Part shown: piece after piece, positions 3,561 to 17,390 of the stretch
How the letters are laid out: every line of letters starts with the position of its first letter
How positions within the stretch are numbered: the stretch's first letter is position 1
Assembly (NCBI GenBank): GCA_030620975.1
Contig: JAUXIO010000003.1
Span: 1-53,489 of the forward strand
Direction: 5' to 3'
DNA: 53,489 nucleotides
Source of the DNA: Dehalococcoidia bacterium
Lineage (GTDB): Bacteria; Chloroflexota; Dehalococcoidia; GIF9; JAUXIO01
Notes under the pieces: generated by a model
The model's database searches: none
The model's input: only the letters and a program-made list of their open reading frames with translations
Told to the model about the DNA's origin: nothing
Position numbers and translations under genes: made by a program

Positions 3561-3562
3561 CT

Positions 3563-6109
3563 CTAGGGCAAGCTTGAATCACCCTTATAAATTCCAGTCT
3601 GTTCTCGCAGACATTCATAGAGGGCTTTCCCCTGTTCTTCTAAAATACCGTTTACCTGCCTTAATGCCCTCATATAATCAGAGAATTCCCTCCCCTCTAT
3701 GGCAACATTATAATCTTGAGCTAACCCTCCTACGATGGAGATCATTTCTTCCCTCAACAGTTCATAGAGTTCTTTTCCTTTAATATGGGAAAGTGCTCTG
3801 GCCAAAGCCAAAGATACAGACAAAATGGCATTCATTCCCAGAGTTCCTTTTCTCTGCATTACCAGGACCTGAGCCTCCTCTTTTGCTTCGGGAGATAATT
3901 TTCCGTTTTGAACGGCAGCTTCCCTCTCTAGATCAAGAAGAGTCTTATCTATATCTTTCAACGATAAACTAGCCAGATCTTTCCCCTCAAACTTGGGCGC
4001 AATTATTTTCACAACGTTCTCTGCGGCATTTAAGCAGCCTTTCCCTTCGTATCTCTCGGATTTGATAAAAAGTTGGATTAATTTCTCATCCCCAGTTTCC
4101 CTTACTTGGGATTCACTTACTCCTTTCTTGAACTCATAAGTGGCTTCCTCCACCTTTTGGAACAAATCCGAATGTCTATCTGCAACCTCTTTATATTCTG
4201 CGTATTCAATTAGAGAATCTATCAGGTGTATGGCTTCCCCAGCTCCGGCAGAAGTTCCTAAAGGAGTAGCTCCCCTCTTTTCCAAAATCAACTGCGTTTC
4301 GGGCGAATATACTTGCACCTCTACACCCACGGTAGGTATGCCAGCATTGGTAGGTTCTTCACAAGAAGTAAAATTCCTTATGATGGCCTTTGCTCCTTCC
4401 TTAAGCGAAGTAAGGGCAATGCCTCTTTCCAATTTGTTCATTAAATCGAGAACTTTCTGATATTTAACTAACCTTTCCGTGTTTGCTCCTCCACCCGCTT
4501 TCAAGCCCAAGGCATTGACCGCCAAAGCGATTTGAGCTTCCATATCGTCATTGGGTGATTTGGAGCGGTGAGAGACCACCAATTCCAAATTCTTGCCTAG
4601 AGCCACCAGCACGGCCAGGATCGTCTCATATAAAGTTCCTATTTGATTGGCTTTAATTAAAGCGGTGTTGATTAGGTGTCGGGAGGCAGACATCTCAATC
4701 GTCTTATCATTGGTAGTTACCAAGTCGTCACCAATCACGAGAATTCTATCTCCCAATTCTTCTAAGAGCATCTGCCAGCCCTGGTAGTCGTCCTCAGCAA
4801 AGCCGTCCTCGATAGAGATTATGGGTATCTCATACTCTTGAATGGCTTTCCTATATATTTCCAAAACCTCGTCCCTGCTGAGGATAACCCTGGCCTTATC
4901 TCTCCAGAACAAATATGTACCCACGCTGTCGGGCATGTTGTACTCTTCTCGATAAGCATTCTGTAATTCACTCATCGCGGGATCCAAGGCAATAGCTATA
5001 TCTACTCCCGGTTTATAGCCACATTCCTCTATAGACTGCTTCATCATCGTCCATAATCTTAGTTCAGGTAAAGGATAATCTCCCTTTTCAATGTAAGGAG
5101 CAAGACCTCCTTCCAAGCCTATTCCCATTACGCGGCAACCCTCTCCCTTCTCAATAATCTCCTTTAGACGATTCTGGAGCTTAACCGTCATCTCCTGAGC
5201 CTCTTCGTAATTTGGAGCTCCCAAAATTACGAACATTCCCTCCTGCATGCTTATGTTCGATTCGGGATATTCCTTCTCAGTATGTCTTCCCCCCATGCCG
5301 CAGTTCCTGAATTGCCAAGGGGCTTCCACTCTCCCCAAAGAAGGATGGACTGCTTTCTGAATTCTTTCCTCAAGCATCCGCTGCTTTACGCCCTGGGAGG
5401 CCTGGTACCAATCAGATACCTTTTCTACCATTTCGGCTTTATATTTTGCCTTTTCCTCCCTCTCTCTAAATTTCCTATATTTCCCGGGGTCGGCGATGAA
5501 AAAGTCTAGTAGAGTGACTAGTCCTATTCCTAAACATAATCTCCCTATGTACAGACTTGGTATATAGTTAAAGTGCAAACCGAAGTAGAGGAGCATTATG
5601 GCCAAGGGCAAGGCAAACAAACAAGCATCCCTGCTAGCCTTTGGTCCATTGGCAGCTACTGCCAGATTGTAAGGAGCATCAGGATAGTAATTTAGGCCTT
5701 CCCTCTTTATTCCCAAGGCCTTACCATAAGGAATGAGGATAAACATCTTAGCGTAGTAAAAAATCCTCTTCACAAGGCTCTGATTAAATTTTTGGTTGAA
5801 TCCCTCTTGAGCGCTTCGATTCAAAGCATTGATCCTGCCTGCCTCTAGGAAGTGTCCCATTTCATGGATGGCAATCCCAGCATGGAAGCTTATATACATA
5901 AATAAGGCGGAGATAAAGGTCTCAGGACTTACGAAGATGAATTTTAAGACCTCCGTCTTAAAGACATGGGCTAAGGGCAAAGATAAAACTGAGGAGATGA
6001 AAGCAACATGGAAGGAGACCAAAATATGGTTGGCTAGTACCCAACCTTTTTCTAGGCGAGCGCCATCTTTATATCCTGCTTCCAATTTCTTGTAATTGGG
6101 GGGCTTCAT
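3563..6109 (-). CDS. Fusion of an N-terminal membrane M50/site-2-protease-like domain with a circularly permuted enolase (barrel first, capping domain last)
   Basis: aa 1-210 are hydrophobic with AIHEMGH and VAANGP. aa 262-560 carry enolase barrel motifs (GGRH, QEGM, EGGLAP, ALD, SIEDG, GDDL, LIKANQIGT, SHRS, ERLVKY). aa 574-787 carry enolase N-domain motifs (GIPTVGVEV, PLGTSAG, RYEGKG, LGMNAILSVSLALARA). Confidence 0.9.
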   Translation of the reverse strand: MKPPNYKKLEAGYKDGARLEKGWVLANHILVSFHVAFISSVLSLPLAHVFKTEVLKFIFVSPETFISALFMYISFHAGIAIHEMGHFLEAGRINALNRSAQEGFNQKFNQSLVKRIFYYAKMFILIPYGKALGIKREGLNYYPDAPYNLAVAANGPKASRDACLFALPLAIMLLYFGLHFNYIPSLYIGRLCLGIGLVTLLDFFIADPGKYRKFREREEKAKYKAEMVEKVSDWYQASQGVKQRMLEERIQKAVHPSLGRVEAPWQFRNCGMGGRHTEKEYPESNISMQEGMFVILGAPNYEEAQEMTVKLQNRLKEIIEKGEGCRVMGIGLEGGLAPYIEKGDYPLPELRLWTMMKQSIEECGYKPGVDIAIALDPAMSELQNAYREEYNMPDSVGTYLFWRDKARVILSRDEVLEIYRKAIQEYEIPIISIEDGFAEDDYQGWQMLLEELGDRILVIGDDLVTTNDKTIEMSASRHLINTALIKANQIGTLYETILAVLVALGKNLELVVSHRSKSPNDDMEAQIALAVNALGLKAGGGANTERLVKYQKVLDLMNKLERGIALTSLKEGAKAIIRNFTSCEEPTNAGIPTVGVEVQVYSPETQLILEKRGATPLGTSAGAGEAIHLIDSLIEYAEYKEVADRHSDLFQKVEEATYEFKKGVSESQVRETGDEKLIQLFIKSERYEGKGCLNAAENVVKIIAPKFEGKDLASLSLKDIDKTLLDLEREAAVQNGKLSPEAKEEAQVLVMQRKGTLGMNAILSVSLALARALSHIKGKELYELLREEMISIVGGLAQDYNVAIEGREFSDYMRALRQVNGILEEQGKALYECLREQTGIYKGDSSLP

Positions 6110-6185: not shown

Positions 6186-6941
6186 TCAAAGCTTCAGCTT
6201 GTCAGCTATTTCCCTTACCCCCAGTTGAAGAGGGGAATCTGGAGGTAACTGGATTAGAGGAATCCCCTTCACTTCCAAGTCAGCAAGGTTTGGATCCTCG
6301 AGAATGGTGGCGATGAGATGAAGCCCAAGACCATCAGCAGCCTCCTTTATTTCCCGAGGAGGCCCGCCTTTAACTCGGTTAATCATTAAATAAACCCCCC
6401 CAACCTTAGTTCTCAACTCTTGAATAAGTTCTTTCATGGCTGCAGCAGCAGTAATACCCCGCACCGTGGGGTCAGAAATGGTGAGCAAGACATCTATGTC
6501 TCCCGCCGTCTGCCGACTGATATGCTCCATGCCAGCTTCGCAATCAATGACCACATAGTCATAATTCCGAGTGAGGCGACCTATAGAAAGACGAAGCATG
6601 TGATTGGCAGCACAGTAACAGCCCGGTCCCTCAGGGCGCCCCATTGTTAACAGGTCGACCTTATCCGATTCAACCAGGGTTGCTCTTATTCTTCCCTGCA
6701 GAATGTCTTGCATAGGCACCCCGGTAGGAAGGCTCTGCTTTTGAATATCTTTGACCATCTCCTCACGCACTCCACCCACGGTGCCTTCAAGTGGCAGACC
6801 CAAAGCCAGATTAAGATTGGCACTAGGGTCGGCATCAACGGCTAGAACTATGCCCTTCTGCGAAAGCAAGTCTATAAGCAAGGCGGCAATTATGGTCTTC
6901 CCAACACCACCTTTCCCAGCAATAGCAATCGCGGTCGTCAT
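6186..6941 (-). CDS. cooC: CODH/ACS nickel-insertion ATPase (CooC/AcsF family)
   Basis: GKGGVGKT, DADP, MGRPEGPGCYC nickel-binding CxC, DCEAGMEHISR; lies in the ACS cluster. Confidence 0.92.
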   Translation of the reverse strand: MTTAIAIAGKGGVGKTIIAALLIDLLSQKGIVLAVDADPSANLNLALGLPLEGTVGGVREEMVKDIQKQSLPTGVPMQDILQGRIRATLVESDKVDLLTMGRPEGPGCYCAANHMLRLSIGRLTRNYDYVVIDCEAGMEHISRQTAGDIDVLLTISDPTVRGITAAAAMKELIQELRTKVGGVYLMINRVKGGPPREIKEAADGLGLHLIATILEDPNLADLEVKGIPLIQLPPDSPLQLGVREIADKLKL

Positions 6942-6949
6942 TTAGGCGC

Positions 6950-8863
6950 TTAGCCTCCAGCTTCCTTAGGGCTACTTGCCTCCGATGGAGGCAGTAAACT
7001 TATCGGCGATAGCTTTATGACGGCACTGTACTCAGAGGGACACATCTCAAGGCAGGTGCCACACTTAGTGCATTTGCTCTGGTCGATGACTTTTATCCCC
7101 TTTTCATTACTGGTGATGGCTTTAGGTGAGCAGGCCAAAATGCAATGCTCGCAGGCCCTGTCACACTTCTCGGGAAGAATATAATAAGCAGTAAGCTCCT
7201 TACACACCAAAGCGGGACAGCGCTTCTCGCGAATATGGGCCTCATACTCATCGCGAAAATAGCGAATGGTAGTTAGAACTGGATTGGGCGCAGTTTTACC
7301 CAAGTTACACAGCGAGCCCATCTTAATGTCCTCGGCCAACTCAAAGAGCAAATCGATGTCTTCAATTCTGCCCTTGCCGGCGGCAATGCCTTCCAAAATA
7401 TCCAGCATCTGCTTTGTGCCCAAACGACACAAAGTGCACTTACCACAAGACTCTTTCTGAATGAAGTCGAGGAAAAAGCGGGCGGTATCCACCATACAGT
7501 TGTCCTCATCCATAACAATCATGCCCCCCGAACCCATCATTACCCCCACCTCAATCAGCGAGTCAAAATCGACTGGGGTATCCAGCAAACTCTCAGGCAG
7601 ACAACCGCCCGATGGTCCACCAATTTGCACCGCTTTCAAAGCCTTACCCTCAGGTACGCCGCCACCGATATCAAAAATGAGCTCACGCAAAGTTGTACCC
7701 ATGGGCACTTCGGCCAAGCCGGTATTAACCAGCTTGCCAGCCAAAGCAAACACTGCCGTGCCTTTACTTCTCTCCGTGCCCATAGCAGAAAACCAATCTG
7801 CGCCGCAATTAATTATTAGCGGGATGTAAGCAAGGGTCTTCACATTATTTATCACGGTGGGCTTATCCCACAGTCCAGCCTCCGCGGGATAAGGCGGTCT
7901 CGGTCTGGGAACGCTCCGCTTGCCCTCAATAGCCTGCATTAACGCCGTCTCCTCACCAGAGACGAAGGCGCCAGCACCCAGTGCCAACCTTATATGGAAA
8001 TTGAAACCGCTGCCCAAGATATTATCCCCCAAAAAGCCCAGCTCTTCCGCTTGCTTTAAGGCAATTCCCAAACGCTCAATAGCTAAGGGATACTCGGCGC
8101 GGATATAAATATAGCCCTGAGAGGCACCCAGCGCATAACCGCCGATGAGCATACCCTCAAGAACCTCATGCGGGTCACTCTCCAAAATTACCCGGTCCAT
8201 AAAAGCACCAGGGTCTCCCTCATCGGCATTGCAAATCACATATTTGGGCTCAACCAAGGCATTGCGGCAGACCTGCCACTTCTCCCCGGTGGGAAAGCCA
8301 GCACCACCCCGACCACGCAACCCCGACCTTTTTACCTCCTCAATTACCTCTCCTTGGGGCATTCTCAAGGCTTTAACCAAACCCGCATAGCCGCCGCTGG
8401 CAATATAATGGTTTATATCCTCTGGGTTAACATAGCCGCAATGGCGCAAGAGCAGGCGTCTTTCGCGCTCAAACCTGAGTAACTCTGGAATATAAACGGC
8501 TTCGCCATCACCGCCTTCGACAGCCCCCAAAGCCAATTCCAGACAGGGGTCATCACCCAGAATATAACCTTCAACCAAGCGAGAAACAACTTCGGGGGTA
8601 ACCTTACCATAGCAAACGCGGAAGGAATCCGGCTTAATTATTACTACCAGGGGCTCGGCATAGCAAAGTCCCATGCAGCCAACTTGGGTGATATTAGCCT
8701 CGGCATTTTGCCGCCGAAGTTCCTCTCTGAAGGCTTCAACTACAGCTAACGCTCCGGCAGCTCTGCCACAGGTGGCGGTGCCGATAAGAATATTGGGCAC
8801 TTCGCCATGGTAAAGGGACTTCCATTGTGATACCGCTCGACTTTTAATTTGCTCAAAGGTCAC
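6950..8863 (-). CDS. NuoF/HydB-like FMN- and NADH-binding Fe-S flavoprotein, long bifurcating-type architecture
   Basis: N-terminal thioredoxin-like Fe-S domain (TCG...GCMGLC), SGLRGRGGAGFPTG, CNADEGDPGAFMDR, GGPSGG, ESCGKCTLCR, C-terminal 2x[4Fe-4S] domain. Confidence 0.92.
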   Translation of the reverse strand: MTFEQIKSRAVSQWKSLYHGEVPNILIGTATCGRAAGALAVVEAFREELRRQNAEANITQVGCMGLCYAEPLVVIIKPDSFRVCYGKVTPEVVSRLVEGYILGDDPCLELALGAVEGGDGEAVYIPELLRFERERRLLLRHCGYVNPEDINHYIASGGYAGLVKALRMPQGEVIEEVKRSGLRGRGGAGFPTGEKWQVCRNALVEPKYVICNADEGDPGAFMDRVILESDPHEVLEGMLIGGYALGASQGYIYIRAEYPLAIERLGIALKQAEELGFLGDNILGSGFNFHIRLALGAGAFVSGEETALMQAIEGKRSVPRPRPPYPAEAGLWDKPTVINNVKTLAYIPLIINCGADWFSAMGTERSKGTAVFALAGKLVNTGLAEVPMGTTLRELIFDIGGGVPEGKALKAVQIGGPSGGCLPESLLDTPVDFDSLIEVGVMMGSGGMIVMDEDNCMVDTARFFLDFIQKESCGKCTLCRLGTKQMLDILEGIAAGKGRIEDIDLLFELAEDIKMGSLCNLGKTAPNPVLTTIRYFRDEYEAHIREKRCPALVCKELTAYYILPEKCDRACEHCILACSPKAITSNEKGIKVIDQSKCTKCGTCLEMCPSEYSAVIKLSPISLLPPSEASSPKEAGG

Positions 8864-8868
8864 TAAAG

Positions 8869-9354
8869 TTAATCGCCCTTGTTTGCTTCTTGAATTTCAG
8901 ACTTTATGGTCGTCAGAACTTCCACCACCTTCCAGGGCGTCATTTTGGGGTAAACGGCATCACCAATTACCATTGCCGGAGCTATAGCACAGCAACCAAT
9001 GCAGGCTACCCTATCCAGGCTGAACTCGCCATCGGAAGTGAGCCCTCCCAAATCAACATCCAATTCCCTTTGCACCGCCTCCAGAACAAGCTCGCCACCG
9101 CTTAAATGACAAGCAGTCCCCATACATACTTTGATAGGGCGCCTTCCCAGAGGGGTAATCCGAAATTGGTTGTAGAAAGTAGCCACGCTGTAAACTAAAC
9201 TTTCTGGAATCTGCAAAAATTTAGCAACGCCGAGCATTGCCTCCTTAGGAAGATAGCCAAACTCAGCTTGAACTTCCTGAAGGATGGCAATCAAATCACC
9301 TCGACCGTCTCCCTGCGCCCTCAGAATCCTGGTTAATCCTTCTGCTACTTCCAC
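8869..9354 (-). CDS. NuoE/HydC-like [2Fe-2S] subunit
   Basis: GYLP, VATFY, VCMGTACH, VACIGCC. Confidence 0.92.
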   Translation of the reverse strand: MEVAEGLTRILRAQGDGRGDLIAILQEVQAEFGYLPKEAMLGVAKFLQIPESLVYSVATFYNQFRITPLGRRPIKVCMGTACHLSGGELVLEAVQRELDVDLGGLTSDGEFSLDRVACIGCCAIAPAMVIGDAVYPKMTPWKVVEVLTTIKSEIQEANKGD

Positions 9355-10709
9355 TTCTTTACAAGCTCCGGTAGAAAGGCTGGTATATCACTGGCTTCTC
9401 TGGGACCTACTATAACCTCCCAGCCTGACATGGCTTCCTCAAGTTCACCTCTGATTCTGGCTACTTTCCCCGGAATAACTAATCGCCTGTGGTTCACCTT
9501 GGCCTCAATGCCACATCTCTTAATAAATGGTTCAATGGTATCGGCGGAAAACTTGCCAGCCGCCCAAGCGGTGACCACACCAAGCCCTTCCGAATTCTTC
9601 ACGCAAAGCCATGACGGAACCTTACTTGCTTCCGTCTCCGAGGAGACGATGAAGTAAGTTAATGACCAGTTCGTAGTAAGTAGAACCGGAGACTGCTCAT
9701 TGGGTTCATTTATCTCATAGACCTTCTCCTCTACTGCCAGAGGCATCCGAGGGTCAGTATAAATATTGAGCCGCTGAACTAGCAGCGGCAGCAAAGAATA
9801 TTGGTCCGCATTGGAAATAACGATAATTCCCGCATACTTAATTATAAATACCGAGGCTGCAACAAATTCCTTCAGTTCCCCTTTAGTCATAAAACAGGGG
9901 AGGGCGATAGTGGGATAACCAAGGGGTCTAAATTTCTGCTTCAAGGCCGCTCTGCGCAGCAACGTCTGAGCCGCTATAGCCTCACGAAGGTTTCCGGAAC
10001 CGGGATCCAGAACTATCTCCTCAATGCCAGCTTCTTTCAATTTGAGGGTAAGCGGGACAAGCTGCTCTACAGTCTCTGCCCTAACCCCCACCGGCGTCGG
10101 TGATTGTTTAATTCGGGGAATAGCCCGGTCAATATTTTCTTCGGTTATGGGGTAGATTAATGGTTTTCTAGAGGCATATATGTCTCTCGCCTCAAAAAGG
10201 GCATCTAAATCGTCCGAGATTAAAACAACTCCGAGGTCAGTGGCTTCATAGGCCCTCCTCACCAAAGCCTCAAACTTAGACTTATCCCCGGATTCAAAGT
10301 ACAAAGCTAGAAGATCCGCCTTGAGGGTCAAGCCCACCCTATCAAACCGCAGCTCTCTTACTTTGTTTATCTTTCGCTCAATGCTCGCCTCAGTCTCCTC
10401 ATCAGACACGAGCAGGGCAATGCCAGGCTGATGAATGAAAGTCTTTTCGTGCCTATACAGCACCTCTTCATTGCCAATTTGCAGGGCATTTTCACCGTGC
10501 CCTATGGTCACCAAGTTAATCGGAGGTGCCAAGGCATCAGCCAGTTCAGCTTTAACCTGGGGGGAAATATAGGGACACTTATCAAGAGATATGCCTCCCG
10601 AAGCTAGCTTCATGGCGAAAGCAAAACAGGTGGGCAAGCCGCATTCCCTGCAGTTCTTCTTACCCCCCTCGGGTAACTTCTTTACAATATCAGTCCCTTT
10701 GATTGACAT
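9345..10709 (-). CDS. acsC: Corrinoid iron-sulfur protein large subunit (AcsC/CdhE, gamma)
   Basis: NCRECGLPTCFAFA...CP [4Fe-4S] motif, VLYRHEKTF, RLNIYTDP, TAWAAGKF, VGPREASDIP. Confidence 0.95.
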   Translation of the reverse strand: MSIKGTDIVKKLPEGGKKNCRECGLPTCFAFAMKLASGGISLDKCPYISPQVKAELADALAPPINLVTIGHGENALQIGNEEVLYRHEKTFIHQPGIALLVSDEETEASIERKINKVRELRFDRVGLTLKADLLALYFESGDKSKFEALVRRAYEATDLGVVLISDDLDALFEARDIYASRKPLIYPITEENIDRAIPRIKQSPTPVGVRAETVEQLVPLTLKLKEAGIEEIVLDPGSGNLREAIAAQTLLRRAALKQKFRPLGYPTIALPCFMTKGELKEFVAASVFIIKYAGIIVISNADQYSLLPLLVQRLNIYTDPRMPLAVEEKVYEINEPNEQSPVLLTTNWSLTYFIVSSETEASKVPSWLCVKNSEGLGVVTAWAAGKFSADTIEPFIKRCGIEAKVNHRRLVIPGKVARIRGELEEAMSGWEVIVGPREASDIPAFLPELVKKWK

Positions 10710-10733: not shown

Positions 10734-11957
10734 CTATGGCAACTCCACTTCGCCTCTCAGCCAAGGGTGTCCCACCTTATCCACAAACTCAACGAGCTCA
10801 TCGGTATTGGTAGCATTTTCTTCCGTGGCTATTTTGTCATATAAATTTTCTGGAATAACATCCCTATATCTTTCTTTTATCTCCTTGGGCATCCACATCA
10901 CCCGGTATAGACCACCGTCCGCCCTCAGGAACTTGGGAGAGCGCATGTATTCTAATGCCATTCCCAAAGAGCCCTCTGCCTGCCTGCCGCCGCCGGTATT
11001 CCCCGCCATAGTAGAAAAAGAAGCTCCAATTGGCGTCTTACCAGCAAAGTCTCTGTGCACTACCCCAAATCCATCTACTTCGGGAATGTAAAAACAAATA
11101 GACTGGAAGCAACCACAAGAAGTATGAGGATGCTCAAAGGCGCTATGAAGATAAACTCGGTTATACTGACCTAATGACCTTTCAGCAATTACCTGATTTG
11201 CCCCGCTGTATTCCCCTTTTACCGGGTCCAAAAGCTCACCCTTGGGTACCTCAAAAATGGGGCCCTCAGGGTCAAGTTGATAAGCAGCTCTACCATCAAA
11301 CCAATTTATAGCCCCACATAATGAAAGGCGTTCTGGAGTTATAATGCAGGCATGAGTGGGCGCAAAACTCTGACACAGCACACAGCCATAAAACTGGTCT
11401 ACATCCTCCTCCCTCAAGCCCTTCAGCCTCTCATCCCTGGCATGGTAAACTTCCAAAGCATGGGGTAGAAGTTCCTGCACACGCTTTTCATCGGTAATGA
11501 AGGTTATGGCAACTCTCTCGATGACTGATAACTCCGAGGTATAAAGAAAAATGAGAATTTTGCCGAAGTCCCTTAAAGATTTTAGCCCCATTTTATAAGC
11601 ATCTTTACTTAATCTGACCCAGGCATCTTCTCTCTGATTCATATGGTAAAGTCCTTGGATATAATTGGTATACATATGTATTCTTCTCTCAATTACCGGC
11701 TCTGTTTCCTTCTCCAGCCTCTCACCGGCGACATCAATCAAAATGGCTAAAGGATAGCTACCTCCCTCCTCCAATTCAAATATGTCGGGGCCGATAACCT
11801 CTATTCTTCCATGCTCAACTTCAGCAGGGCTATTCAAGGTTACCAACTCAAACTTGCTTTTCGCTTTCGGTCCACCAAACTCAACGTACAAGTCCGCTTT
11901 CCTTATCACATCACCTTCATATTGAGGTCCAATATCCACCGGAAAAGCTTCTGTCAT
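10734..11957 (-). CDS. cdhC: Acetyl-CoA synthase, short archaeal-type beta subunit (CdhC)
   Basis: 407 aa with no bacterial N-terminal domain; FPVDIGPQYEG start; A-cluster ligands intact (GCVLCQSFAPTH, LCGAI, HTSCGCF). Confidence 0.95.
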   Translation of the reverse strand: MTEAFPVDIGPQYEGDVIRKADLYVEFGGPKAKSKFELVTLNSPAEVEHGRIEVIGPDIFELEEGGSYPLAILIDVAGERLEKETEPVIERRIHMYTNYIQGLYHMNQREDAWVRLSKDAYKMGLKSLRDFGKILIFLYTSELSVIERVAITFITDEKRVQELLPHALEVYHARDERLKGLREEDVDQFYGCVLCQSFAPTHACIITPERLSLCGAINWFDGRAAYQLDPEGPIFEVPKGELLDPVKGEYSGANQVIAERSLGQYNRVYLHSAFEHPHTSCGCFQSICFYIPEVDGFGVVHRDFAGKTPIGASFSTMAGNTGGGRQAEGSLGMALEYMRSPKFLRADGGLYRVMWMPKEIKERYRDVIPENLYDKIATEENATNTDELVEFVDKVGHPWLRGEVELP

Positions 11958-12021: not shown

Positions 12022-13359
12022 TTAGTGTACTACATCTTCCAATGACGCCTTGGATGGATAGGTGCCGATCAAAGTGGGCAGGCTTAAAGTCGGTTTTTCT
12101 TCCCAACCCACAGTAGGGAGGTAACTCATTACTTCCTTCTTAAAGAAGATGGGTATATCTGCAGTTCTCCTGACATATAAGTGGAGGTCATCGGGAAGAC
12201 CCTCAGCATATCGCTTATATAAAGAGATATAATGATTTAACTTTATCTGCCTTCCCTGCGGAGTATCATTCTTCCTGATACACAACTTGGCAATGCTAAC
12301 CATCGCCTCTTCCTTCGAATTGGCGACGCAAGCCAGATGCTGTGGCGATGGCTCCTTGGTATCTATAAGCTCTCCCTTCCTTCCATCCATTACCATCCAA
12401 TCGCTATCTCGCTTCTGGCTTAGATAGAGTCTCGCATATTGAGCTGGGCCTACCATCGTTGGAATCCCGTATCTGCTAAATCCAGCGGCTATGGGCAAAG
12501 CCTCTTGGGGCAGAGTTCCCCAAGCCACCCCACAAGCGCCAACTCGGCTAAAAACATAATCAGCTATCACTTCATAATTTGCCCGAACTGGTAATGAAGC
12601 AAATATCATGGCTATTTTTATCAAGGCTGCGGAGATGCGGCAACTCAGCATATAGTCACCAATATTAATTACTCCACCAAGGTTCAATGCCGATGAATAT
12701 TTATCGGTGACTACTACAATATATTTTCTCCGCACCAAGTCCTGTACCATCTCAAGCACGGGTTTAATGTCCTCGGCTAAATCAGAGCAACCGACAAAAG
12801 CAACAATGCCCGGTATGGCACCCATTACCAGAGGCGCCCCAACCGACCTTATGGTCACATCCTGCACCGGGCCATGCTCAGTGCTCGGCTCAAATGTAGT
12901 CTGGGCAATGTCAGCTGCTTCCATAACTACGTGGTCCAACATCCCGGCGTGAAGTGCCCCGGATTCACACTCTAAAGAGCTCGCTTCCAAATTGACAGAC
13001 TCAAGCCGACTGCATTGCCCCTCTGCGTAGTCAATCACTTTGCTTAAGTCATTCAAGCTCTCCGGCCTGAGTCCCACAACGGTTTTTATGTTTGGAGCTT
13101 CCACATCAAGTTCGTGGTCCTCACCATGCTTATCAACATAATTGCCAACAACCCCCCTGGCATAATCAATATGGGTGCGAAGACCCCTGACGCAGATGTT
13201 CATTACCACCCCGGCTGATACCGACGGCGCATAAGATGGCCTATAGATTTTGAAAAGCCTCATGTCCCAATTTCTCAAATCTGGGATTTCAGGCATCGGT
13301 GTTGGCCCCACCGGTTCCCAGGCGTCAGTAGCTCTTATAATTTCAGCTTTATTATCCAC
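12022..13359 (-). CDS. cdhA: Degenerate, internally deleted archaeal-type CO dehydrogenase alpha subunit (CdhA-like), probably non-catalytic
   Basis: CdhA signatures GPTPMP..DLRNWD, HAGMLDH.MEAADIAQ, IRSVGAPLVMGAIPGIVAFVGC, IADY..SRVGACGVAWG, AKLCIR.ND..GR.IKL.HY. Only 445 aa against about 780-800 for typical CdhA, with the Cys-rich segments absent. No frameshift or internal stop; start overlaps the acsD stop. Confidence 0.85.
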   Translation of the reverse strand: MDNKAEIIRATDAWEPVGPTPMPEIPDLRNWDMRLFKIYRPSYAPSVSAGVVMNICVRGLRTHIDYARGVVGNYVDKHGEDHELDVEAPNIKTVVGLRPESLNDLSKVIDYAEGQCSRLESVNLEASSLECESGALHAGMLDHVVMEAADIAQTTFEPSTEHGPVQDVTIRSVGAPLVMGAIPGIVAFVGCSDLAEDIKPVLEMVQDLVRRKYIVVVTDKYSSALNLGGVINIGDYMLSCRISAALIKIAMIFASLPVRANYEVIADYVFSRVGACGVAWGTLPQEALPIAAGFSRYGIPTMVGPAQYARLYLSQKRDSDWMVMDGRKGELIDTKEPSPQHLACVANSKEEAMVSIAKLCIRKNDTPQGRQIKLNHYISLYKRYAEGLPDDLHLYVRRTADIPIFFKKEVMSYLPTVGWEEKPTLSLPTLIGTYPSKASLEDVVH

Positions 13360-14254
13360 TTACTATCTCCTTCACCAACTTATAGCTTTCAGGATGTCTT
13401 AGAACCAAAATGTTAGCTCCAGCTAAAAGCAAAGAGGTAGCGGTTATCGCTTCCCAAAGTATCCCCTGCTCCCTACCCGCCTTCGCTTCCTTCGTCTTCC
13501 AGCATTCCCCGCCCAAGTTAGCAATAATGGGCATCTGCATCATCCCGTCTTTGAAAATTACGGCGAGCTGCTTTGCCCTCTCTATGATAGTAAAACTATA
13601 TTCCATACCATATCCCAACCCTGAACTTACAGGATCAATGACAATCTTATTCGCGGGAAAGGACTTACAAAGTTTTATATTTAGCTCCTTCATCAAATTG
13701 ATATCTACGGGGCTTTGAGCAATTACAGAATGCCCGTGTTCCAAAGCCACCTTACCTATCTCCTCATAGTTTTCCTTTAGCAGCGGGCCTAGAAGGAGAT
13801 TCTCGCTATCACACACCTCAGCAACTTTACTTAGTACCCGAACATCCGCCTTCTCATCTCCAGTGCCATAAACTATTAGGGGCACATCTAAAGCATCATT
13901 CACTTTCTTAACCAGCGCCGCTGCCTGCTCTGCAGACACAGCTTCCCCCGCCGGGTCAGTGCTCTCCAGTTGAAGGCAAATAGCCTCGGCACCAAAATCA
14001 TTCACGCATTTTCTTGCCCAGTTTACGGGGTCAGAGACCACTTCGCCGAAGGGCTCAAGCAGCCAATCAGGCCAGTCTGCTGGTTCCACATCATAGACTT
14101 CCAAGGCGAACCGCGGTGGATTGGCCACCGACCCCTCAAAAAGGTGAAGGGGAAGAATATTCTCCCCACCGATTTTTAAGGCTTTGTTTCCCCTCCCCAA
14201 CACCACCTCTCTAACTCTCCCAGCATAGACTTCAATTGGAGGATGATATATCAT
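13352..14254 (-). CDS. acsD: Corrinoid iron-sulfur protein small subunit (AcsD/CdhD, delta)
   Basis: KIGGENILP, ALEVYD, DINLMKELN, IVIDP..GLGYGMEYS, WEAITA, LRHP. ATG at 14254 chosen because GGAGGT lies upstream. Confidence 0.94.
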   Translation of the reverse strand: MIYHPPIEVYAGRVREVVLGRGNKALKIGGENILPLHLFEGSVANPPRFALEVYDVEPADWPDWLLEPFGEVVSDPVNWARKCVNDFGAEAICLQLESTDPAGEAVSAEQAAALVKKVNDALDVPLIVYGTGDEKADVRVLSKVAEVCDSENLLLGPLLKENYEEIGKVALEHGHSVIAQSPVDINLMKELNIKLCKSFPANKIVIDPVSSGLGYGMEYSFTIIERAKQLAVIFKDGMMQMPIIANLGGECWKTKEAKAGREQGILWEAITATSLLLAGANILVLRHPESYKLVKEIVSG

Positions 14255-14256
14255 TC

Positions 14257-15138
14257 TTAGACCTCCAGCCAAGCGTGGGAGTAAATCTCCCCTCCCATGA
14301 GCACTCTGGCGGTCTTCACATAATCTCGTTCCTTTTGTGAAAGACCGGAAAGTTCTAGATTCTCCTCATCCATTACCCCATAAATGAGGTCGACGATATT
14401 GGGCAATTCTCCCCTATTCAACCTTATAAGCTCCTCATCCAAGGCATCAGCAATTACAGAATACTGACCAGACTTGGCCAGCATTACCATATAAGTGCGA
14501 TTGAGAATCCCTCTGAGCGGCTGTGGCGTCCCATTAGATACATTTGAAAGTCCTATTACTGATTTAACGCCGGGCAGCAACTCAGGCAATATTTTAACGA
14601 ATTCCAAAACCTCCATAACCTGCCTTTGGTCAACGCTGACTGGCAGAAGGATGGGATCAACCCAAATGTCCTCGTTGGGAATACCCAGTTCATTGGCATA
14701 AGTAACCGTATCTATAATGCTCTCTATCCTTGAATCCACATCGGGAGGGCAGCCAATGTCGGTAAGCACTGAAATAACGACATCTATAGAATATTTTTTG
14801 GCCAAAGGCAGCATTAACTCTTTACTATCAGTCCTTCCTGAAGCTGAATTAAGCAAAGGCCTCTTTTTACAAAGTTTGAGGCCTGCCTCCATAGCTATAT
14901 GATTCATGGTATCCAAAGACAGAGGTAGATCGCTAGCCTCCTGAACCGTATTAACTAGCCACTGCATCACCTCCGCCGGGTTCTTGCGCGCTGGACCGAG
15001 GTTTAAATCTATATAGTCAACATCAACCTGAGCTAAAGCTAACTCTTGTATATGTTGAGGCTCTCTCTTATACATGGCCTCGCTAACCGCTTTAGAAATA
15101 ATGTGTATATTTTCACCAATGATAATCACTAAAATCAA
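14257..15138 (-). CDS. acsE: Methyltetrahydrofolate:corrinoid/Fe-S protein methyltransferase (pterin-binding barrel)
   Basis: IIGENIH, DYIDLNLGP, LPLSLDT, LLNS, WVDP, GLSNVSNG; cluster context. Start may be GTG at 15129. Confidence 0.9.
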   Translation of the reverse strand: MILVIIIGENIHIISKAVSEAMYKREPQHIQELALAQVDVDYIDLNLGPARKNPAEVMQWLVNTVQEASDLPLSLDTMNHIAMEAGLKLCKKRPLLNSASGRTDSKELMLPLAKKYSIDVVISVLTDIGCPPDVDSRIESIIDTVTYANELGIPNEDIWVDPILLPVSVDQRQVMEVLEFVKILPELLPGVKSVIGLSNVSNGTPQPLRGILNRTYMVMLAKSGQYSVIADALDEELIRLNRGELPNIVDLIYGVMDEENLELSGLSQKERDYVKTARVLMGGEIYSHAWLEV

Positions 15139-15668
15139 ATCCTGGGTGAAATAGATGGGTCAGGAGAGCGGATTTCCATAATTAAGAATCTATATCCCTT
15201 AACGATAACCTCTCGGCAAGGAGTAAATCCGCATTTTTCAAAGCATTTCTGCGCCCTTATATTCCAATCTAGGGTCTTAAGGTAAATTCTCTTTAACTTT
15301 GTGGTGGCAAAATTATGATTCAGCAAAGTAATCACTGCATCAGCACCATAACCTTTATCCCAGTAAGCCCGCTCGCCAATCATAATACCCAGCTCTGCCT
15401 CTCCTTCACCTTCATCTATATCAAAATAACCACAGTTGCCAATGTGCTCTCCATCCAGAGTCTCAATAGCAAAACGGCATTGTCCTCGCAGGGGATGGTT
15501 TAATTCTTCAGCATATATCTTCAAATATTCCTCGAAGGAACAAACCAAGGCCGGGGCCGCATCTAAACTGCTTAACTCGGGGTCTACTCGCCAAGCATAA
15601 TCGTTAGCAGCATCAGCCAATTTCTTTTGGCGCAGCCTCACTTTCTGCACGTTTAACAATTGGCACAT
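15135..15668 (-). CDS. GNAT N-acetyltransferase, RimJ/RimL type
   Basis: AELGIMIGE, YWDKGYG, NIRAQKCFEKCGF. Confidence 0.88.
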   Translation of the reverse strand: MCQLLNVQKVRLRQKKLADAANDYAWRVDPELSSLDAAPALVCSFEEYLKIYAEELNHPLRGQCRFAIETLDGEHIGNCGYFDIDEGEGEAELGIMIGERAYWDKGYGADAVITLLNHNFATTKLKRIYLKTLDWNIRAQKCFEKCGFTPCREVIVKGYRFLIMEIRSPDPSISPRI

Positions 15669-15671
15669 CAG

Positions 15672-16604
15672 CTAAAGCTCAAATAAATAAGGGTCTTCCC
15701 AAAACTCCAGTTCACTTAATGCCGCCTCGGCAGCCTGGCGAACCGGGTCACGAAAATCTTCCAATAGAGAGTAAAGAGTTTGCTTAGCTTCTGCTCCGCC
15801 TATTTCCCCAAGCGCTTTTATGGCCGCCTGTTGAACTTCAATATCTTCATCATGAACAAGATTAATAAGATGAGGTACTGCCTCCCTGGCTCCCAGTTCA
15901 CCACAGGCTGCGGCTGCCTCAAAAAGCATTTCAGCGTCTTCGCTATCCAGTTCCTTTATAAGAATAGGCAACCATAACCGATCACAATTGCGCCCCATGG
16001 CATACAAAGCGCTAATTTTAAGTCTAATGTCACCGCTCTGATAAGCTTGCTCAAGGAGTTCTGTTACCCGAGGTGAGTTGAAGGAGGCAATTGCTTCTAA
16101 GGCACGACGTTTCACTTCAGCTAACTCGGCCTCGTCTTCAAGAACTGTCAATAAAGCTGAAAAAACTCTAGCGGCCTGATTAGAAGGCAATTTCCCCAGC
16201 TCAGCCAATAAGGCAAACTTGCCCAAGGCAATGGCCGCAGCAACTCGAACATTTCCAGCATCATCCTCCCTCAATAGTCGAAACAGAGGAGAAACCAAGG
16301 AGTAATTCTCCGCCAAAGCTAACCCATTAACGGCCTGAGCTCTAACAACTTCGCTGGCGTCTCGAAGACAAATGGTAAAGATACCATCAAAGTTAAGTTC
16401 AAGGTTATCTTCAGCGAGCTCAACGAGCCGAGAAGTAAGCTGACACCGACGCTTTAGCTCCGTTTTAATCCAAGCTTTTTCAAAAAGCTCCAGCTCCTCG
16501 TCTGCTAAGTTGGATAAACATACTAATTTAGAATTGACTAACGGTTCCCCCAAATCAGAGATTCCAGCGAGCCGTTCCGTAAAGGAAGCGAAATCCCGTT
16601 CCAT
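15672..16604 (-). CDS. HEAT/PBS-lyase repeat protein
   Basis: Repeated D.d.eVR.aAa.ALG units (VRAQAVNGL, VRVAAAIALG, VQQAAIKALGEIG, VRQAAEAAL). Confidence 0.88.
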   Translation of the reverse strand: MERDFASFTERLAGISDLGEPLVNSKLVCLSNLADEELELFEKAWIKTELKRRCQLTSRLVELAEDNLELNFDGIFTICLRDASEVVRAQAVNGLALAENYSLVSPLFRLLREDDAGNVRVAAAIALGKFALLAELGKLPSNQAARVFSALLTVLEDEAELAEVKRRALEAIASFNSPRVTELLEQAYQSGDIRLKISALYAMGRNCDRLWLPILIKELDSEDAEMLFEAAAACGELGAREAVPHLINLVHDEDIEVQQAAIKALGEIGGAEAKQTLYSLLEDFRDPVRQAAEAALSELEFWEDPYLFEL

Positions 16605-17390
16605 CTAGTTGATCTCCTCCTCCCCCCGCTCCCAAATGGGCTCGGTGAAATGCCCAATAAATTCGCTCATAGCCTCGGCGGCTAACTTCTTCATTTCCTC
16701 ATCTGCCTGTTTAGCCAAGCTGGTAAGTTCAGTAAGATCGATCTCGATTCCAAGCACCTCAGTTAGAACTCTAAGGATAGCCAGAGAGGCTTTGGGATTG
16801 GCTACCCGCATGGCATATGTCGGCACCTCGCCCAGTAAACAAATACCCTCGATGCCCCGCTCTTTAGCTACCCCTAAAAACAATCCATTTAACCCAACAA
16901 TATGAAACTTCCCGCGGAAAACAACTTTATACTTCCTTAGACTCTCAATCAACTTATGATCCGTGGCTACTGCCCAAACTTTTGGCTCCTCGGTGTGATG
17001 AATCCGACTTAAGGCAGCAGCACAAGTGTATATTCTCCCCACTTTGAGCTTCTCCCCAACATCCAAAATGCAATTGGCCAACTCGTAGACTTTCAAATCG
17101 GGTTGCTGCTCACAAATAAACAAAGCTATGTCTCGCCCGGAGCCGGCATTCTGCCAGTAATAGAACTTGCCCGCGGGAAAGTTTGGAGCTTCAATTACGT
17201 CATCTTCAACCATCACGCCAGTTGGTTCAAAAAAACTGGGAGAGTCAATCTCACCTATTTCTTCAGCACCTAGTTTGTCTTTGATATAATTAGCAACGAT
17301 TAAAGAAACATTTCCAATGCCGGGCCAGGCAGCAATCATAGAACAAGCCTTGGGGTGTGGCTTCTTGTAAATTCTAACTGCACCTTTCAC
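16605..17390 (-). CDS. PAC2 (proteasome assembly chaperone) family protein
   Basis: AAWPGIGNVS, IVGLNGLFLG.AKERGIEGICLLGE, NPKAS, C-terminal coiled coil. Confidence 0.85.
   Translation of the reverse strand: MKGAVRIYKKPHPKACSMIAAWPGIGNVSLIVANYIKDKLGAEEIGEIDSPSFFEPTGVMVEDDVIEAPNFPAGKFYYWQNAGSGRDIALFICEQQPDLKVYELANCILDVGEKLKVGRIYTCAAALSRIHHTEEPKVWAVATDHKLIESLRKYKVVFRGKFHIVGLNGLFLGVAKERGIEGICLLGEVPTYAMRVANPKASLAILRVLTEVLGIEIDLTELTSLAKQADEEMKKLAAEAMSEFIGHFTEPIWERGEEEIN

Follow-up and report, generated by a model that had tools for sequence, protein, structure and literature searches.

The CODH/ACS operon and its shortened cdhA gene

The window, by which we mean the whole 53,489-nucleotide stretch that was analyzed, carries a CODH/ACS operon on its minus strand. 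In the direction of transcription, it comprises an acsE-like methyltransferase gene (14257..15138, 293 amino acids [aa]), acsD/cdhD for the small subunit of CoFeSP (13352..14272, 306 aa), a shortened cdhA gene that we refer to as mini-cdhA (12022..13359, 445 aa), cdhC for acetyl-CoA synthase (10734..11957, 407 aa), acsC/cdhE for the large subunit of CoFeSP (9345..10709, 454 aa), a NuoE-like gene (8869..9354), a gene for a NuoF-like Fe-S flavoprotein (6950..8863), and a gene for a CooC/AcsF-like P-loop ATPase of the CbiA family (6186..6941). The acsE-like, cdhC, and acsC labels come from profile matches, which also confirm that CdhC is of the short, two-domain type; the NuoE- and NuoF-like labels come from reading of the sequence. 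CdhC has F198 and cysteines at the invariant positions of its family (presumed A-cluster ligands), and AcsD is of the short (313-aa) type that lacks the long N-terminal region invoked by the archaeal model. The order acsE-acsD-cdhA-(cdhB)-cdhC-acsC-nuoE-nuoF-cooC is whole at 16 of the 18 relatives' loci and is cut by contig ends at the other two. The absence of cdhB was considered as a marker of CODH loss and rejected, since four of these 18 loci combine a full-length cdhA with no cdhB, and the genomes concerned gave no PF02552 match.

The mini-cdhA gene, for which the original prediction had given no strand, runs from a GTG start (13357-13359) to a stop at 12022-12024. Its first 8 nt are shared with the end of acsD, in line with the coupling to acsD that had been proposed. 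A Shine-Dalgarno motif read from the sequence (AAGGAG, 13367..13372, minus strand) lies inside the end of acsD, with a 7-nt spacer to the GTG. The cdhC gene follows 64 nt downstream as a separate open reading frame (ORF), so mini-CdhA lacks the covalent fusion to A2-A3 found in AcsB.

To locate what mini-CdhA has lost, we aligned it with eight full-length (~768 aa) Chloroflexota CdhA proteins and measured each deletion against one of them (P0003, 769 aa). The N-terminal arm (aa 1-47, WEPVGPTPMPEIPDLRNWDMRL; 13219..13359) lacks 10 aa. It is followed by the helical domain (aa 48-155; 12895..13218), where 28 aa that contain the B/D-cluster Cys motif (FCDLCCFCTFGKCDLT..GACGIDIA) are missing after YRPSYAP, as originally predicted, together with two shorter stretches of 6 and 3 aa; two of three conserved His of the helical stretch are replaced. 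A FEPSTE linker (aa 156-161; 12877..12894) stands in place of P0003 residues 203 to 464, that is, of Rossmann fold 1 and the E/F ferredoxin insert. The original prediction had recognized the loss of this block after DIAQTTF but put it at roughly 300 aa, whereas the alignment gives 262. In Rossmann fold 2 (aa 162-330; 12370..12876), a 19-aa loop with a C-cluster Cys (GCAAMVAGMKKDKDGLTLY) is gone after aa 218, so that the SGC cysteine was lost by deletion and not, as had been read, by substitution to TDK. The changes of GSC to GDY (aa 234-236) and of SQK to PQE (aa 284-286) are both borne out by the alignment. A further 2 aa (HS) are missing, whereas the CdhA-specific C-terminal domain (aa 331-445; 12025..12369) is conserved as in catalytic orthologues. 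The total loss is 324 aa, and the deletions are selective and in frame, as had been claimed.

These losses dismantle the metal sites of the enzyme. Neither the B-/D-cluster Cys motif nor the E/F ferredoxin insert is present, and the number of Cys falls from 26 in P0003 to 8 (C56, C116, C131, C191, C240, C276, C344, and C360). We took the ligand scheme (one His and five Cys for the C-cluster, plus an acid-base His and Lys) from Table 2 of PMC6344411, with VGC, SGC, and GSC assigned as Cys3 to Cys5 and the SQK lysine as the acid-base catalyst by order and invariance. On this scheme, C191 (VGC) is the sole survivor among the three C-terminal C-cluster Cys, as anticipated, and mini-CdhA does not have the ligand and acid-base set of a catalytic CdhA. 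Profile searches reflect the same damage: the TIGR00314 cdhA model matches in four stretches at 393.2 bits, where its cut-off for the full-length family is 781.3, and the Pfam Prismane model gives 26 bits, below its cut-off of 27.

Occurrence, descent, and selection

The genome assembly (1.02 Mb, 94.65% complete) is fragmented into 71 contigs, which invites the suspicion that the deletions arose in assembly or binning. That explanation, however, is already refuted. Two metagenome contigs (L028 and L029) carry the same 445-aa form at 97.1% nucleotide identity to the window, with no indel in the gene. The 90% cluster holds five further distinct 445-aa variants from four sources beside the window's own sequence, and contigs from DNA runs of two other studies (X2 and X6) bridge all three large junctions at an identity of at least 99%, with no indels or joints listed. 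Homologues of ~445 aa with the same deletions, which the original prediction had called for, thus exist beyond this assembly. Contigs from RNA libraries also cover mini-cdhA, although such contigs do not show transcription. The known variants are at least 98% identical and represent one narrow lineage.

Among ~440 class relatives searched (40 genomes of the same order and 400 others), we found no second Dehalococcoidia mini form. In the same order, 36 of the 40 genomes gave a match, and 34 of these 36 C-terminal matches lie within open frames of 698 to 863 aa; the frames in G010 (241 aa) and G007 (130 aa) were rejected because, by their coordinates, the matches lie at contig ends. In the class scan, 47 of the 400 genomes gave a match. 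Here, we set aside a 407-aa frame (G201) that proved to be a frameshifted full-length gene, a match at 32% identity that is cut by a contig end (G181), and three short frames that, by coordinates, lie at contig starts (G306, G406, and G105). A short frame of 305 aa was also seen in G395. The best 120 homologues of mini-CdhA are dominated by full-length CdhA, a set in which rarer short forms could not show, and a search of representative sequences was more useful. From the latter, four sequences of 437 to 471 aa (P0267, P0247, P0350, and P0378) were discarded, since they keep the cluster motifs and are either fragmentary or without an initial Met. The literature that we searched contained no description of a cluster-less or truncated CdhA; supplements, which lay outside that search, may list such sequences.

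In the tree, mini-CdhA nests in a clade (support 100*) with 18 full-length Dehalococcoidia CdhA proteins, whereas the A1 domain of a relative's AcsB (locus L107) is a long outgroup branch. The stem branch of mini-CdhA measures 0.50 substitutions per site, compared to 0.007 to 0.2 for its full-length neighbors. Mini-CdhA is thus a rapidly evolved descendant of a full-length CdhA of Dehalococcoidia. The divergence is uneven along the protein. Measured as the fraction of positions that match the consensus, in mini-CdhA versus the 18 full-length relatives, conservation is 0.77 versus 0.79 in the C-terminal domain and 0.70 versus 0.78 in the N-terminal arm; it drops to 0.50 versus 0.74 in the helical domain and to ~0.53 versus 0.85 in Rossmann fold 2, the most diverged part. 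Thus, the description of the last 200 aa as strongly CdhA-like holds at orthologue level for the last ~115 aa but not for the full 200.

A gene that has lost every catalytic element, sits on a long stem branch, and is ~16 points less identical to its relatives in the retained columns than CdhC and AcsC predict could be a decaying relic whose frame stays open by accident, or solely to maintain translational coupling within the operon, and whose product has no function. We consider this very unlikely. Between the window and L028, 27 of the 36 changes in mini-cdhA are synonymous and 9 are nonsynonymous, which gives a Nei-Gojobori dN/dS of 0.092 (binomial test against neutrality, P = 4e-11); this value comes from one pairwise comparison within the narrow lineage that is known. 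Against the full-length relatives (55 to 60% amino acid identity), synonymous sites are saturated. The neighboring genes gave 0.184 (cdhC), 0.117 (acsC), 0.097 (nuoE-like), and 0.15 to 0.20 (nuoF-like). In addition, all six distinct 445-aa sequences keep the frame with no frameshift or stop, the N-terminal arm and the C-terminal domain are conserved about as well as in the full-length orthologues, and the gene has a Shine-Dalgarno motif of its own. Mini-cdhA is thus under purifying selection as strong as that on its neighbors and is not decaying, so the earlier preference for selection over decay stands; loss of catalytic residues together with purifying selection makes the product a pseudoenzyme.

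An A1-like architecture and its possible role at CdhC

We next consider the fold that remains. An AlphaFold2 model of mini-CdhA is of moderate quality (pLDDT 70.2, pTM 0.75), with low pLDDT in the N-terminal arm and values of 87 to 94 over most of the C-terminal domain. In Foldseek comparisons, the model aligned to CdhA chains with a query TM score of 0.80 to 0.85 and covered the A1-only chains 9g03_D, 6yua_D, and 9fnc_D with target TM scores of 0.74, 0.71, and 0.72, respectively. The sequence matches the A1 domain of AcsB collinearly across the large deletion (6ytt_A, residues 10 to 285; E = 3.4e-7), and the AcsB of the relative at L107 matches it as well (E = 5e-7). In both the model and these collinear HMM and BLAST matches, a helical bundle leads directly to one Rossmann fold, with no clusters, as in A1. 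The suggested likeness to the CODH-fold-related N-terminal domain of AcsB is therefore found in sequence and in fold.

The stretch R171-S-V-G174-A175-P-L-V178 (12826..12849, minus strand) corresponds to the gating helix, and F253 (12601..12603, minus strand) corresponds to the Phe at the choke point of the CO alcove or channel. By alignment and hand count, R171, A175, V178, and F253 align with Arg500, Leu504, Val507, and Phe601 of the Methanosarcina thermophila CdhA (residues from PMC11474084). All four equal the full-length Chloroflexota consensus, and three of the four equal the M. thermophila residues. The gating-helix pattern of Arg, Gly, a hydrophobic residue, and Val plus the alcove Phe (R171, G174, A175, V178, and F253) is thus present by sequence position, and residues 173 to 179 of the model have a pLDDT below 50. 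Retention of all four alcove positions is statistically weak evidence, with an estimated chance of ~0.08 at the regional match rate.

No other CODH gene was found in this genome. PF03063 and TIGR00314 matched only the mini-cdhA ORF and ferredoxin-like pieces, and PF02552 (CdhB) had no match; a search for Fhs (PF01268) gave only a 16-bit, subthreshold match, at the same 94.65% completeness. At this completeness, Fhs or a CODH could still lie on unassembled DNA. In AcsB, A1 binds to a CODH dimer and extends its CO tunnel; no CODH gene that would allow such docking was found here. With no CODH, the pathway likely runs as acetyl-CoA cleavage with CO release, or in the synthetic direction with CO supplied from outside, as in Dehalococcoides that lack CODH.

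We think it probable that mini-CdhA serves CdhC as a separate lid and docking partner that resembles A1. In the solved archaeal complexes, the CdhA-ACS interface is largely formed by Rossmann fold 2 and the C-terminal extension (PMC11474084), and Rossmann fold 2 of CdhA plays the role of A1 in archaeal ACDS (PMC11474084; PMC13370988). By analogy, the parts retained in mini-CdhA would be those that touch ACS. In the mechanism that we propose, mini-CdhA would dock on the two-domain CdhC through Rossmann fold 2 and the C-terminal domain, which would set the gating helix and F253 over the A-cluster and supply the closed state and CO alcove normally given by catalytic CdhA. The stand-alone cap or CO channel of the original prediction would then be borne out. 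Making or breaking of a C-C bond at the A-cluster would need such a lid even where CODH is absent. [quoted passage not shown] 2010), and two CODH-less relatives (G008 and G013; 99 to 100% complete, with no Prismane match) have a three-domain AcsB with A1. A co-fold of mini-CdhA with CdhC gave weak support for binding, with a score of 0.51 (runs of 0.60, 0.43, and 0.51; best of three controls, 0.00), and this score may derive from solved complexes of the same kind (9c0s and 9c0t) already known to the predictor. Of 80 solved complexes, 58 reach the co-fold mark, as do 2 of 110 mismatched pairs; at scores of 0.60 or less, only 7 of the 80 reach it, together with both of the passing mismatches. 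The runs share at least 62% of contacts, and the partner has a pLDDT of at least 85.

Some features of mini-CdhA speak against a lid. Rossmann fold 2, reportedly the main surface that contacts ACS, is the part that has diverged most, the conserved N-terminal arm is without an assigned partner here, and AcsD is without the region that the archaeal model invokes. The best-conserved parts, the arm and the C-terminal domain, would fit a noncatalytic protein that serves as a structural or assembly factor for the CoFeSP/ACS/NuoEF-like module, or that helps CdhC to mature together with the CooC/AcsF-like ATPase. The conserved, disordered N-terminus of CdhA has been proposed to tether CODH to the CoFeSP scaffold (PMC13370988), and the operon keeps its cooC-like and nuoEF-like genes. 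Even so, we regard an assembly or maturation role as rather unlikely: the short AcsD does not have the scaffold region found at the N-terminus in archaea, mini-CdhA has retained the residues of the alcove and gating helix, and no evidence links CdhA to maturation of the A-cluster. Still less probable is a metal site, or another catalytic activity, kept or gained through the eight remaining Cys. These include C191, at a C-cluster ligand position, and C276, in a family-conserved GACG, and strong purifying selection is compatible with catalysis. Yet the deletions removed the B/D motif, the E/F insert, and Rossmann fold 1, the expected site of the N-terminal ligands of the C-cluster. Under the scheme of PMC6344411, only one of the three C-terminal C-cluster Cys survives; the SQK lysine, which we assigned as the acid-base catalyst by order and conservation, is lost, and two of the three conserved His of the helical stretch are replaced. 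None of the known cluster motifs is left in mini-CdhA.

Mini-CdhA amounts to a natural deletion experiment, in which the genome gave up CO oxidation while selection has kept the A1-like half of CdhA beside a two-domain ACS. Whether A-cluster chemistry as such requires a lid can thus be tested directly on a pair of small soluble proteins, and fusion of mini-CdhA to CdhC would recreate an AcsB-like enzyme. These points touch on two open questions, namely, the origin of the A1 domain of bacterial ACS and its role beyond CODH docking. An independent archaeal family (described below) and the A1 domain of AcsB have the same architecture, and this architecture would therefore be a recurrent evolutionary solution. 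The broader reading, that mini-CdhA is a living example of an A1-type lid carved from a CODH subunit and needed by a two-domain ACS for C-C chemistry even without CODH, is somewhat short of an even chance in our estimate. There is also a consequence for annotation. Pfam misses mini-CdhA by a single bit, and CODH surveys drop short or motif-deleted sequences by design, as described in PMC6344411 and PMC8776680. Pipelines may instead call the protein a CODH/ACS alpha subunit and so report a false complete Wood-Ljungdahl pathway in Dehalococcoidia of marine sediments and cold seeps.

Comparison with known systems

Mini-CdhA shares its descent with the archaeal-type CdhA of ACDS (Ni-CODH clade A, TIGR00314), the subunit seen in 9c0q to 9c0t of M. 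thermophila, 3cf4 of M. barkeri, and 8riu of "Ca. Ethanoperedens." The tree and the syntenic position of its gene between cdhD and cdhC identify it as a CdhA by descent, and both proteins have the N-terminal arm, helical domain, Rossmann fold 2, and CdhA-specific C-terminal domain. In contrast to these enzymes, mini-CdhA is 324 aa shorter, is devoid of Rossmann fold 1 and of the motifs for clusters B, D, E, and F, has E286 in place of the SQK lysine, and comes from a genome in which no CdhB partner was found. In architecture, it resembles the cluster-less A1 domain of AcsB (Moorella thermoacetica 1mjg and 6x5k, Carboxydothermus hydrogenoformans 7zkj, and Clostridium autoethanogenum 6ytt, 6yua, and 9g03), with the same gating-helix pattern, R-x-x-G-x-x-x-V plus a Phe (PMC11474084; PMC12289521). 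It differs from A1 in that it is unfused, carries the additional C-terminal domain and N-terminal arm of CdhA, and has no CODH in its genome on which to dock. Nor does it share the descent of A1; the suggested echo of how the bacterial domain arose is therefore one of convergence and not of common ancestry.

In keeping ACS and CoFeSP without CODH, the genome resembles Dehalococcoides mccartyi, which has a CODH-less module of AcsB and AcsCD, belongs to the same bacterial order by its kinship label, and cleaves acetyl-CoA to a methyl group and CO (PMC7005905, citing Zhuang et al. 2014). The relatives G008 and G013 share this layout. However, genomes of the D. mccartyi type have a three-domain AcsB with a built-in A1, whereas this genome has a two-domain CdhC and a separate A1-like protein; it also contains acsE and MetF, which are missing from D. 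mccartyi according to the papers on that organism. Other members of the CODH family are shortened or incomplete in their motifs, among them mini-CooS (clade G) and Ni-CODH groups A-4 and A-6 (PMC8776680; PMC6344411). In groups A-4 and A-6, all three C-terminal Cys of the C-cluster are still present together with the E/F region (PMC6344411), features of which mini-CdhA has almost nothing left, and the small mini-CooS is described with a complete cluster motif (PMC8776680), which mini-CdhA does not have.

A parallel in form is a family of 454- to 459-aa archaeal proteins (P0271, P0290, P0403, and P0404; locus L100 of a Thermoproteales archaeon metagenome-assembled genome [MAG]) with the same two large deletions. 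These proteins are collinear with aa 27 to 422 of mini-CdhA, have R, V, V, and F at the alcove positions, and are encoded next to the gene for the large subunit of CoFeSP. They are 26 to 28% identical to mini-CdhA, occupy a separate place in the tree, and keep the loop that is lost here. Alongside them, their genome encodes a CooS-type CODH and CooC, with CdhC on a separate contig. The archaeal family is thus independent of the mini-CdhA of Dehalococcoidia.

Gene, operon and relatives

A single open reading frame on the minus strand of the window (12022..13359) encodes mini-CdhA, a 445-aa CdhA derivative with a GTG start. It belongs to a minus-strand operon that comprises acsE (14257-15138), acsD/cdhD (13352-14272), mini-cdhA, cdhC (10734-11957; 407 aa, two-domain type), acsC/cdhE (9345-10709), NuoE-like and NuoF-like genes and, last listed, a gene for a CooC/AcsF-like ATPase. 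The first 8 nt of mini-cdhA are shared with the end of acsD, and an AAGGAG lies 7 nt before the GTG; 64 nt separate mini-cdhA from cdhC, which has an AAGGAG of its own. Immediately upstream of acsE, 15135-17390 (minus strand) encodes a GNAT acetyltransferase, a HEAT-repeat protein and a PAC2-family protein. Since PAC2 and GNAT genes also lie upstream of acsE in a relative (L081), this linkage may be conserved. Elsewhere in the window, an 848-aa frame (3563-6109, minus strand) has an unusual enolase domain order, with the C-terminal TIM barrel (Pfam; aa 272-561) preceding the N-terminal domain (aa 590-730) and about 270 N-terminal residues without assignment.

The source genome (1.02 Mb, 71 contigs, 94.65% complete) contains MetF; searches of it found no CdhB, no Fhs and, beyond ferredoxin-like pieces, no second Prismane/CdhA match. 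The nearest homologues among the matches listed are labelled Chloroflexota or Dehalococcoidia. Of 40 same-order genomes, 36 gave a match, none of them a mini form; for 34, the open frame around the match is 698-863 aa long. Likewise, 47 of 400 other genomes sampled across the class matched, none with a demonstrable mini form. Operon synteny is kept across the 18 relatives' loci inspected. In 14 of these, cdhB lies between cdhA and cdhC; the other 4 have full-length cdhA yet lack cdhB, so absence of cdhB by itself says little. A supported subclade of full-length CdhA (L083, L093, L097 and L098, from genomes G011, G009, G026 and G018) has no CdhB (PF02552) match in its loci or genomes, and the G011 protein reads YVPVTDKCNLC where others read FCDLCCFC. 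Some full-length relatives have a DUF166 gene between cdhA and cdhB (L080:7169-7867, minus strand; likewise in the corresponding gap of further f2 relatives), which is absent from the window operon. In a further class relative (L084; G201:C2:101000-113000), cdhA and acsD are each broken by a single frameshift; the breaks are assembly errors or else mark CODH/ACS decay by a second, different route.

Losses, authenticity and selection

The NCBIfam cdhA model matched mini-CdhA in four pieces totaling 393 bits (cut-off, 781), and Pfam Prismane scored slightly below its cut-off. Against a solved CdhA (8riu_A), residues 10-46, 52-155 and 162-420 align to 28-64, 98-209 and 479-759. Alignment with eight full-length Chloroflexota CdhA proteins bore out the original prediction of a CdhA stripped of its metal sites. 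Counted against one of these references (P0003), mini-CdhA is 10 residues shorter at its N-terminus and has lost the Cys-rich B/D-cluster motif (28 aa), stretches of 6 and 3 residues from the helical domain, a 19-aa loop and 2 further residues; where P0003 has 262 residues comprising Rossmann fold 1 plus the E/F ferredoxin insert, it has FEPSTE. This large deletion before Rossmann fold 2 had been anticipated, at about 300 aa rather than the actual 260 or so. The proposed changes of GSC to GDY and SQK to PQE are both present, and C191 of VGC is, as noted earlier, the sole survivor of the three C-terminal C-cluster cysteines. The SGC cysteine, thought to have been substituted in a change to TDK, was instead deleted with the 19-aa loop. 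In all, 8 cysteines are found in mini-CdhA and 26 in P0003.

These deletions are not an artefact, nor are they unique to this assembly. The 445-aa gene recurs, free of indels, on two metagenome contigs (L028 and L029), which match the window at 97.1% identity across 5.3 kb and each other at 99.98%. Six distinct 445-aa sequences from four sources, that of the window included, fall in the 90% protein cluster, together with two fragments. At least 10 of the sequencing runs listed, from four studies with a possible source study set aside, contain at least half of the sampled words. Contigs from runs X2 and X6, at least 99% identical, span all three large junctions (near 13224, 12873-12891 and 12705) with no insertions, deletions or joints reported; contigs from two RNA libraries (X16 and X17; 95-99% identical) also span the junctions, though contig presence is no proof of transcription. 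The acsC of L028 (about 2846-4209) has a 1-nt gap relative to the window, probably an assembly error, because the otherwise 99.98% identical L029 aligns without a gap.

Decay, the alternative to selection, is countered by a dN/dS of 0.092 for mini-cdhA (window versus L028), a single pairwise comparison inside a narrow lineage. Of the 36 differing sites, 27 are synonymous and 9 non-synonymous, where neutrality predicts about 23% synonymous (p = 4e-11). Values for cdhC, nuoE-like and nuoF-like genes were 0.184, 0.097 and 0.15-0.20 (versus L028), and for acsC 0.117 (versus L029).

In a tree of the shared 445 columns (quick search, LG+G4), mini-CdhA falls inside a fully supported clade with 18 full-length Dehalococcoidia CdhA proteins, on a stem branch of 0.50 substitutions per site versus 0.007-0.2 for its neighbours. 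Mini-CdhA shares an identity of about 0.57 with its relatives, roughly 16 points less than the divergence of CdhC and AcsC would predict. This acceleration is regional. The fraction of positions matching consensus (mini versus relatives) is 0.50 versus 0.74 in the helical domain and about 0.53 versus 0.85 in Rossmann fold 2, but 0.70 versus 0.78 in the N-terminal arm and 0.77 versus 0.79 in the C-terminal domain; the latter two are thus conserved much as in catalytic orthologues. The arm (aa 1-47; window 13219-13359; WEPVGPTPMPEIPDLRNWDMRL) reaches about this level despite predicted disorder. The archaeal scaffold model would pair the arm with a long N-terminal region of AcsD, which is absent from the AcsD encoded in the window.

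Likeness to the AcsB lid domain

Mini-CdhA also resembles A1, the N-terminal lid domain of three-domain bacterial AcsB. Across its large deletion, mini-CdhA is collinear with this domain (6ytt_A residues 10-285; NF040764 positions 3-255; a relative's AcsB). Its AF2 model, of moderate quality (pLDDT 70.2, pTM 0.75), gave TMq 0.80-0.85 on CdhA chains and, covering the whole of A1, TMt 0.71-0.74 on A1-only chains.

In a study of Methanosarcina thermophila CODH/ACS (PMC11474084), CdhA Rossmann fold 2 stands in for the absent A1, the CdhA C-terminal extension also contacts ACS, and the CO alcove and gating elements are built from Arg500, Leu504, Val507 and Phe601; an M. acetivorans study takes the same view of Rossmann fold 2 (PMC13370988). 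By alignment and hand count, these four residues, on which the alcove argument turns, correspond to R171, A175, V178 and F253, which match the full-length Chloroflexota consensus at 4/4 and M. thermophila at 3/4. The gating helix is poorly modelled, and Rossmann fold 2, the supposed main ACS contact, is the most diverged region.

Co-folding with CdhC, each protein with its own alignment (A2, A3), scored 0.51 (runs 0.60, 0.43 and 0.51), and the best of three controls 0.00. At least 62% of contacts agreed between runs, and partner pLDDT was at least 85. The mark is passed by 58/80 solved complexes and 2/110 mismatches; scores of 0.60 or less comprise 7 of the 80 and both passing mismatches. The outcome was weak support and, because a like complex is already solved, it speaks to likeness rather than binding.

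Interpretation and parallels

The most economical reading is that mini-CdhA is a pseudo-enzyme and a free-standing A1 analogue; CdhC binding, a lid function and the metabolic direction are inferred. CO oxidation would have been lost first, after which selection would have retained only the ACS-serving parts of CdhA. The whole case concerns one narrow lineage and an incomplete genome. Our literature search returned no described cluster-less stand-alone CdhA, although an earlier mention is possible; CODH surveys leave out such sequences by design (PMC6344411, PMC8776680).

A representative search revealed a second, archaeal family (P0271, 454 aa; P0290, 459 aa; P0403; P0404) that is collinear with mini-CdhA and shares its two large deletions, but is only 26-28% identical and has a separate tree position; its alcove positions are R/V/V/F. 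In a Thermoproteales archaeon MAG, in which no full-length CdhA was found, this gene (L100:7775-9139, plus strand; 454 aa, no Pfam match) follows cdhE and adjoins CooC and a 633-aa CooS-type CODH (neighbours at L100:6261-7685 and L100:9837-12542), with CdhC on a different contig. The archaeal protein may be an unfused adaptor of a CooS-type CODH to a two-domain ACS.

Two same-order genomes (G008 and G013, loci L107 and L108; 99-100% complete) have no Prismane-family match and encode a 733-736-aa AcsB with full A1, followed by acsD, so relatives without CODH keep the A1 module too. ACS truncation work, as cited in PMC12289521, reportedly found the N-terminal domain critical for C-C bond breaking. 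This layout of three-domain AcsB without CODH is that described for Dehalococcoides; in D. mccartyi, according to PMC7005905, acetyl-CoA is cleaved by AcsB and CO exits the cell.
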